A stretch of DNA of 64,000 nucleotides from Escherichia coli (GTDB lineage: Bacteria; Pseudomonadota; Gammaproteobacteria; Enterobacterales; Enterobacteriaceae). Below the pieces are notes generated by a model. The model was not told the origin of the DNA, ran no database searches, and worked only from the letters and a program-made list of their open reading frames with translations. Shown here in pieces: positions 24,409 to 25,904 of this stretch (position 1 is the first letter of the stretch; every line of letters begins with the position of its first letter). Position numbers and translations under genes: made by a program. Location: NCBI RefSeq assembly GCF_048403405.1, contig NZ_CP183129.1; one strand, 5' to 3'.

Positions 24409-24522
24409 TTACCCTGAACTGACGATACAACAAAGGCGCAACGCTTTTGAGATAAAGGATCGATGCTTTCGCTGCTTTTACCCTCTACCATTAGGCTAAT
24501 TGCGACGAGAAAGGGACGAACT

Positions 24523-24711
24523 ATGAATACTAACGTTTTTCGACTGCTCCTGCTGGGAAGCCTGTTCAGCCTTAGCGCCTGTGTGCAGCAAAGCGAAGTG
24601 CGACAGATGAAACACAGCGTCAGCACACTGAACCAGGAGATGACGCAACTCATTGACATCCTCCACGCCCTGAAGGACGTGGATCCCTGCTACGTTCAGG
24701 CTGTCGCCTGA
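24523..24711 (+). pseudogene. yajI: 5' fragment of lipoprotein gene yajI, interrupted by an IS200/IS605-family insertion
   Basis: ATG at 24523, divergent from nrdR; MNTNVFRLLLLGSLFSLSAC is a lipoprotein signal with lipobox; the frame runs into the 3' end of the inserted tnpB and stops at 24711. The exact junction is not resolved. Confidence 0.6.
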
Positions 24712-25904
24712 ATCATTTCGGTGGGTTCCTGCTTCAACGGGCGGCCTGACTGCACCATCCCTCCACAGGCAAGAACGGCGTGCCCCGCCGCTAAAATGTT
24801 ACGAGCGCCATTTACATCGGCGTTCGCTGTATATCCACATACCTGGCATCTGAATTTACTTTGTGACAGGCGATTTTCTTTCGCTGTATGACCACAGCAC
24901 GCGCAACGCTGGCTTGTGTACGCTGGCGGAACAGCAAGCACCTGACCGCCACGCCAGAGCTGCTTGTACTCAAGCTGGCGGCGCATTTCATACCAGCCCT
25001 GATCCAGTATCGAACGGTTTAAACCTGATTTTGCCCGGACATTGCGCCCCGGCTGGCTGACCGTACCCGCTGCTGACTTTGACATGTTACTGACCTTCAA
25101 ATCCTCAATGACTATCATTGCGTGGTTTTTGCTGACGGTCGTTGTGACTTTGTGAAGGTAGTCCCTGCGGATATTTGCGATACAGGAATGCAGTCGCTGT
25201 ATTTTGCGTTTCTGCTTCTGCCAGTTGTTGCTGAATTTGACCTTGCGGCTTAACTGTCGCTGAAGTCTCGCCAGCGTCTTCTGGTTTTTCTGAAAACTGT
25301 TTACAGGCTCAAAGACTGTGCCATCTGACAGCGTGGCGAGTTTAGCCACGCCAGCATCCAGCCCGACCATTGATGCTGAAGGGTGAACCGGAGTTGATAC
25401 TTCACTTTCTGTCTGAATACTGATGTACCACTTACCGCAGGACTGGCTGACAGTGACATTTTTCACAACACCCGTGACCTGACGGCTATTCCGGTAGCGC
25501 ATCCAGCCAAGTTTCGGCAGAAAAATACGGCTGTTTTCCTGATCGAGCTTAACGCCCTGCGGGTAGCGGAATGCATCATTCTGTCCCCGCTTTTTGAATC
25601 GGGGAAAAGCAGCCCGCTTCTGGAAGAAGTTTTTGTAAGCCCGCTCAAGGTCTTTCAGTGACTGTTGCAATGGCTGTGACGGGGCATCTTTAAGCCATTG
25701 CGTTTCAGTGGCATTTTTCCACTCAACCAGCCAGGAAGCCATTTTCCCGTAAGGGATGTATTTATTACCGGCCTCATGATTCTCATTCTGAAGCGCCAGA
25801 GCACGATTGAAAACGAAACGACATGCGCCTGCGAAGCGCCTCATTTCACGCTCCTGTTGACCACCGGGTCTTAACTGGAATTTAAATGCCTGTAGTCGTT
25901 TCAC
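24696..25904 (-). CDS. tnpB: TnpB (OrfB) RNA-guided endonuclease of an IS200/IS605 element (402 aa)
   Basis: GTG start at 25904; N-terminus [35 protein letters not shown]; C-terminal RuvC-like region with zinc finger CACCGHT...[18 protein letters not shown]. Confidence 0.9.

Follow-up and report, generated by a model that had tools for sequence, protein, structure and literature searches.

A predicted TnpB guide RNA template at the right end of an IS609 copy interrupting yajI in Escherichia coli

In the insertion sequence ISDra2, the RNA that guides the TnpB nuclease comes from the 3′ end of tnpB together with the right end of the element, is read from the tnpB strand, and takes a guide of ~16 nt from the flanking DNA; residue D191 is documented as part of the active site of this nuclease (PMC8612924). 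For the ISGst elements of Geobacillus stearothermophilus, both TnpB activity and an effect on transposon retention have been shown experimentally (bioRxiv 10.1101/2023.03.14.532601). The TnpB of Helicobacter pylori IS608 was inactive in plasmid interference (bioRxiv 10.1101/2023.03.14.532601), so not every TnpB can be taken to be active. Two further classes of structured RNA belong to this background: RAGATH-18, which is the reRNA core of IS607 TnpB (PMC11061315), and the sot RNAs, archaeal sense-overlapping transcripts at tnpB 3′ ends (PMC4615843). For IS609 itself, Table S3 of PMC12781874 (NAR 2026) lists a 207-nt "IS609 omega RNA scaffold," which that paper combined with TTAT as the motif and an IS609-type TnpB in purified form. 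The design of the scaffold followed a rule and did not rest on mapping by RNA-seq; its source is a metagenomic relative with a TnpB 94% identical to that of ISfinder IS609. Of trans-cleavage, the paper states that an ortholog other than this IS609 relative performed best. In the literature on IS609/insQ RNA or activity in E. coli, we found no expression, processing, or cleavage study.

Here we analyze a natural chromosomal copy of IS609 in a 64,000-nt stretch of E. coli DNA (contig NZ_CP183129.1; hereafter the window). The window holds thiL, nusB, ribE, ribD, and nrdR on the minus strand, followed by yajI, tsx, yajD, and secF, with the element seated inside yajI (Table 1). The 5′ fragment of yajI, which a first-pass annotation of the DNA had placed in the interval under study, is indeed found there, and the 3′ remainder of the gene resumes at 26401. 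We read the locus as the right end of IS609 combined with the template of an omega RNA, and we put the probability of this reading at roughly 0.85.

Table 1. Positions of the features discussed in the text, counted from the first letter of the window.
Feature	Position	Strand	Remarks
tnpB, 402 aa, intact	25904..24696	-	stop codon 24696-24698
tnpA (Y1 HUH transposase)	25912-26439	+	Pfam Y1_Tnp PF01797, E 2.4e-40
Complete IS609 (IS200/IS605 family), 1,748 bp	24653-26400	-	in yajI codon 44
Target / transposon-adjacent motif TTTAT	26401-26405	-	directly 5′ of left end
yajI 5′ fragment	24523-24652	+	codons 1-43 (MNTNV...EMTQL; 24523-24651) and first base of codon 44
Predicted omega RNA scaffold, structured core, 139 nt	24653-24791	-	R1 match, covariation, published scaffold
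Predicted guide, 16-20 nt, 5′-UGAGUUGCGUCAUCUCCUGG	24633-24652	-	first flank bases past right-end boundary
Right-end subterminal hairpin CCACGUCC-UUCA-GGGCGUGG	24663-24682	-	10 nt inside right end
Left-end subterminal hairpin CCCCGUCC-UUCA-GGGCGGGG	26364-26383	-	16 nt inside left end
Resemblance to HgcC	24640-24763	-	23.8 bits; gathering threshold 50
Resemblance to RAGATH-18	24726-24769	-	28.1 bits; gathering threshold 44.9
Resemblance to sot0042	24662-24823	-	17 bits; gathering threshold 88

The boundaries of the element follow from an allele that lacks it. The empty yajI allele (L003) reads ...GCAACTCA joined directly to ATAAAGAAAC..., and the occupied allele carries 1,748 bp between these two halves. 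Removal of 24653-26400 restores the empty site exactly, with an unambiguous junction and without target-site duplication. Eight other E. coli copies are 93.6-99.1% identical over positions 1-1748 and diverge exactly at both ends; with the window they represent seven distinct insertion sites, the others being ydcO (K-12), a TetR-family gene near ytfB (three strains), yfeD, yedK, yidH, and a plasmid. It is because the empty allele and these eight other insertions could be compared that the ends and the target motif are fixed. The first-pass annotation had held that the exact end of the IS could not be fixed from sequence, which is correct for the window in isolation but fails once other sequences are compared: the comparison of IS609 right ends that it had suggested puts the boundary at 24653, the very base past which the other copies diverge.

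The transposition "top" strand corresponds to the minus strand of the window, with the left end at 26400 and the right end at 24653, and the right-end sequence on this strand runs ...GGATGTCAA with its last base at 24653. Read along the minus strand, the left part consists of TTTAT, the left boundary, CCGGTGCGCCGTAAAA, and CCCCGTCCTTCAGGGCGGGG, followed by tnpA in reverse and then tnpB; the right part after tnpB consists of CCACGTCCTTCAGGGCGTGG and AGGATGTCAA, the right boundary, and TGAGTTGCG. As is characteristic of the IS200/IS605 family, terminal inverted repeats are absent and subterminal hairpins lie near both ends on the same, minus strand. Over its 1,748 bp, the element is 98.2-99.1% identical to the copies in K-12 (insQ locus) and O55:H7 and to other copies, and RefSeq names the tnpA of two copies (L006 and L007) "IS609 family transposase." Judged by its sequence, 24653-26400 is an ordinary copy of IS609, a known element and not a new system.

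The TTTAT motif belongs to the flank and not to the IS, because it is present in the empty allele. It is found at five of the seven distinct sites (the window, L001, L004/L007/L008, L005, and L009), and the remaining two have the variants CTTAT (L006) and TTTAC (L010). The L006 copy (2544-3362), which adjoins yedK, has an internally deleted tnpB. The plasmid-borne copy with the TTTAC flank (L010, 2503-4247) is merely 93.6% identical.

The TnpB encoded by this copy matches the Pfam families OrfB_IS605 (PF01385), Cas12f1-like_TNB (PF07282), and HTH_OrfB_IS605 (PF12323), all above their cut-offs, and its stop codon lies where the first-pass annotation had put it. Its RuvC residues are D183, E267, and D363, and its zinc-finger cysteines C334/C337/C353/C356; these positions equal those in the critical-residue list of PMC12781874, shifted by two. 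Alignment with the ISDra2 TnpB structures 8bf8 and 8exa (E 1.3e-54) superimposes the catalytic D/E/D residues and reveals a 15-aa insertion in the window protein after the E267 region. By this alignment, the active site of TnpB is intact. The possibility that the protein is a TldR-like repressor was rejected because of the intact RuvC triad.

The state of tnpA is different. At 26341-26343, where L005 and L007 have the stop codon TAG, the window and K-12 have CAG, and the open reading frame of the window continues through the left end of the element into yajI, yielding 175 aa versus 143 aa; RefSeq lists the gene as a pseudogene with a missing C terminus. Given this loss of the stop codon, excision, through which the target arises, may be rare or absent, or it may depend on other copies of IS609. 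The two genes also differ from those of ISDra2 in their arrangement: in ISDra2, tnpA and tnpB share one orientation and overlap, whereas those of IS609 are divergent. Only 7 nt separate the start codon of tnpB on the minus strand from that of tnpA on the plus strand (25904-25912), so both promoters must sit inside the other gene.

To the right of these genes on the minus strand, the region predicted to template the omega RNA overlaps the last ~30 codons of tnpB and includes the 43 non-coding bases that lead to the right end. A conserved 15-mer from this region, GCAGGAACCCACCGA, was sought in 100,044 species genomes and found at 120 loci, about 45 of which also end in GAGGATGTCAA; many of the 120 are chance matches, and those ending in a GAGGATGTCAA-like motif were kept. 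Their sources are Actinomadura, Frankia, Streptomyces, Halomonas, Tepidimonas, Thermomonas, and many metagenome bins. A covariance model (R1) built from 19 relatives and three ISAba30 scaffolds, with the window and all E. coli sequences left out, has a sole strong match in the 64-kb window, at 24653-24770 on the minus strand (101.2 bits, E 7e-25). The second match is the left-end hairpin (26365-26384, minus strand, 14.7 bits). A third, at 36984-37094 on the minus strand (12.5 bits, E 0.086), is ordinary sequence without a GTCAA end and was dismissed as chance.

Base pairing in this region is maintained by compensatory change. Across 50 distinct relatives, 94.8% of alignment cells pair, against 44-50% when the partners are slid by one to three columns, and 10 of the 20 pairs show double changes (102 cells versus 28 ± 4 in shuffles), which supports the middle and terminal hairpins. 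Farther upstream, inside the tnpB frame, a hairpin at 24791-24786/24780-24775 shows compensatory changes in four of six pairs, with 83% of its cells pairing compared with 28-46% when slid. Because this hairpin covaries, the structured core must span at least 24791-24653, farther inward than the limit of 24760 that the first-pass annotation had expected. Single-sequence folding (z = -3.0 for a 208-nt stretch and -2.6 for a 163-nt one) recovers the middle and terminal hairpins but mispairs the 5′ part, so we relied on covariation instead. A tnpB gene on the same strand ends at most 150 nt from the RNA core in 21 of the 30 relatives that have at least 600 nt of upstream sequence, and the association holds even for TnpBs 29-32% identical to that of the window.

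The minus strand from ~24791 to 24653 thus carries a conserved RNA structure that ends exactly at the IS boundary, and the 5′ end of the predicted scaffold could lie as far out as about 24860. The proposal of the first-pass annotation, an omega RNA running from the 3′ end of tnpB through the right end of the IS, is supported by the position of the R1 match, by the covariation, and by the collinearity of the published scaffold. Expression and activity of the RNA in this copy seem to us somewhat more probable than not, and they are less certain than the identity of the locus.

The scaffold listed in PMC12781874 is collinear with 24859-24653 of the window (minus strand) over all 207 nt, with no net length change and 84% identity, and both sequences end in GGAGGAUGUCAA. 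The two share the same helices, with compensatory differences in three hairpins (for instance, CCACG/CGUGG in the window versus CCCCG/CGGGG), and the TTAT of the published assay agrees with the TTTAT beside the window IS. What sets the two apart is their origin: the published scaffold is that of the metagenomic relative, and the window holds a natural chromosomal copy with a putative guide derived from yajI. With ISDra2, the predicted RNA shares its placement and strand, a guide taken from the flank, a target motif that equals the insertion motif (PMC8612924; cryo-EM, PMC10097598), and a common 3′ layout of GAAUC-hairpin-GAGGnnUCAA. The motif differs, being TTGAT in ISDra2 and TTTAT at the window IS609, and one stem-loop of the IS609/ISAba30 class, located between GCAGGAACCCACCGA and GUAGGAAUC, has no counterpart in ISDra2.

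The first-pass annotation had proposed a search with known covariance models. In an E-value scan against Rfam 15, three models of RNAs associated with TnpB (HgcC, RAGATH-18, and sot0042) match on the expected strand and at the expected place, the 3′ end of tnpB, but all are below threshold (Table 1); no family reaches its gathering threshold in this region of the window or in 20 related loci. Membership in RAGATH-18, HgcC, or sot0042 was therefore rejected, and the matches are treated as resemblance only. In the case of RAGATH-18, the resemblance lies in the CCUGUGGAG...GAAGCAGG stem, which has an internal loop; for HgcC and sot0042, it lies in the terminal CCnCGnCCUUCAGGnCGnGG hairpin and the GGAGGAnGUCA tail.

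This terminal hairpin had been noted in the first-pass annotation as a possible subterminal structure, and it is present as such. On the minus strand, it folds into a stem of nine pairs, one of them G-T/G-U, with four bases in the loop; the DNA form has a folding energy of -7.7 kcal/mol (z = -3.7), a stability reached by 1 of 200 shuffles. The hairpin near the left end is nearly identical to it, and every E. coli copy examined has kept both. Across distant relatives, the stem of the right hairpin (helix 4) shows compensatory changes in five of seven pairs, and the HgcC and sot0042 models each have a 3′ hairpin that matches this one. Given the twin at the left end, the conservation, and the covarying stem, the right hairpin is not a product of chance. 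It is presumed to act both as the TnpA recognition hairpin in single-stranded DNA and as the last stem-loop of the omega RNA.

Following the precedent of ISDra2 (PMC8612924), the ~16 nt past the right-end boundary are predicted to be the guide. This flank begins 5′-UGAGUUGCGUCAUCUC(CUGG), runs from 24652 downwards, and is antisense to yajI codons 38-44, in keeping with the view of the first-pass annotation that any guide here would be derived from yajI; the sequence after GTCAA differs at every insertion site examined, which is what a guide requires. The K-12 copy, at the insQ-ydcO junction, has the same scaffold and a different putative guide. Within the window, the guide sequence occurs once, preceded by ...GTCAA and without an adjacent TTTAT, and the element would accordingly spare itself, its occupied site being no target. 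In the empty yajI allele, TTTAT is followed by a 20/20 match to the guide.

By analogy, this geometry of yajI::IS609 is the donor-joint geometry shown for the Geobacillus elements, and the motif of ISGst TnpB2 is likewise TTTAT. The elements and the host differ, and retention of the window IS609 is proposed by analogy with ISGst. By the precedents of ISDra2 and Geobacillus, a transcript arriving from the tnpB side would run out of the element, and TnpB would bind the scaffold and protect about 16-20 nt of the flank (UGAGUUGCGUCAUCUC...) as guide. Scarless excision by TnpA would rejoin yajI and expose TTTAT followed by an exact guide match, the predicted target being TTTAT-TGAGTTGCGTCATCTC. TnpB might then cut the rejoined gene, and recombination with a sister copy would restore the IS. 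In this scheme, TnpA would use the last ~40 nt of the element as its single-stranded right end, and the same stretch would also supply the RNA with its 3′ stem-loop.

The yajI insertion is one of many in the species. Of 5,426 complete E. coli genomes searched by megablast, 4,904 have the IS609 right-end region, which lies at many sites besides yajI. The same insertion in yajI occurs in 340 of the 5,426 (~6%), at 99-100% identity, most hits of this search having two to three places per record. The yajI locus is uninterrupted in 5,080, where uninterrupted means that the match covers 80% or more of the joined-flank query. In the RefSeq record of the yajI::IS609 allele, the guide RNA template carries no annotation.

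Part of the conservation described above, that in the terminal hairpin and the TCAA end, also serves TnpA at the DNA level, and one could go further and regard the whole conserved sequence as the DNA right end for TnpA alone, made up of hairpin, internal guide bases, and TCAA cleavage motif, with no functional RNA. The twin hairpin at the left end on the same strand is what TnpA recognition requires, and a hairpin in single-stranded DNA would explain the covariation of helix 4 equally well, so that the covariation of the terminal hairpin could be explicable by this requirement alone. The GGAT before the hairpin and the terminal TCAA also resemble the right-end guide and cleavage motifs of IS608. 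Yet conservation and covariation reach ~139 nt inward, far beyond an end of the size TnpA needs, and they include a covarying hairpin within the tnpB frame and a k-turn-like stem matching RNA models. In PMC12781874, moreover, the same region of a 94%-identical relative served as the omega RNA scaffold of an assay. The two roles are mutually compatible, and we regard a purely DNA-level function as highly improbable. Still less credible is that a minus-strand transcript acts mainly as antisense or read-out RNA on the yajI fragment or nrdR-ribD instead of guiding a nuclease. A transcript that leaves the IS on this strand would pass antisense through the yajI start toward nrdR-ribD-ribE-nusB, which lie on the same strand (23923-24652), and a weak terminator-like hairpin with a T-rich tail stands 22 nt past the right end (24630-24615, minus strand), a possible determinant of where read-out transcripts end. 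However, yajI is already disrupted, the conserved structure has no relation to a host context that changes with every insertion site, and the terminator-like match is graded at chance level (6 such matches in the whole region versus 1.9 ± 1.4 expected).

A more serious concern is that the RNA is a genuine omega RNA homologue but an inert relic, with no excision taking place and the TnpB-RNA pair lacking a current role or expression. The loss of the tnpA stop codon and the pseudogene label point in this direction, as does the recurrence of the yajI insertion at 99-100% identity in the 340 genomes, which resembles a fixed copy passed on vertically. A simple promoter scan found no sigma-70-like site near the scaffold on the minus strand; such a scan counts neither for nor against the RNA, whose source would be the tnpB transcript or else a promoter that the scan misses. 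Against decay stand the full-length tnpB with every catalytic and zinc-binding residue intact and a scaffold that has kept all conserved helices. The stop-loss extension of TnpA leaves the region of the catalytic tyrosine in place, and TnpA from the other IS609 copies in a genome, mostly at two to three places per record, could act in trans. On balance, we think it unlikely, but worth taking seriously, that the pair is inert, and we prefer the reading of the locus as an IS609 right end with an omega RNA template.

If that reading is right, its value is mainly one of annotation: it fixes the ends, the target motif, and the predicted guide of a very common E. coli element. It reveals no new mechanism; the biology is known, and so is this kind of guide RNA. 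The yajI copy would be armed, in principle, against the uninterrupted yajI that the great majority of other E. coli seem to have, which would make it a simple natural setting for testing the transposon-retention model within E. coli. A broader proposal, which we put forward tentatively and consider doubtful, is that RNAs of the IS609/ISAba30 type form a distinct, widespread omega RNA subclass that is RAGATH-18-like and bridges two guide RNA lineages, and that TnpB keeps yajI::IS609 in place by cutting yajI alleles that have been restored. Were this true, a 5′ domain resembling the RAGATH-18 core, so far tied to IS607 TnpBs alone, would link both lineages, and the subclass would span Enterobacteria to Actinomycetes, with TnpBs down to 29% identity, and be without an Rfam family.

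Individual R1 matches vary in their surroundings. Four of them (L015, L016, L041, and L126, from Actinomadura, Streptomyces, and others) score 69-86 bits and lie at the 3′ end of TnpBs that are 29-32% identical to the window protein. A further set of matches (two sites in L063, and L110, L111, L117, L080, L070, L023, and L113) has ample upstream sequence and no adjacent tnpB homologue; candidate explanations are solo right ends, PATE-like derivatives, and decayed copies.
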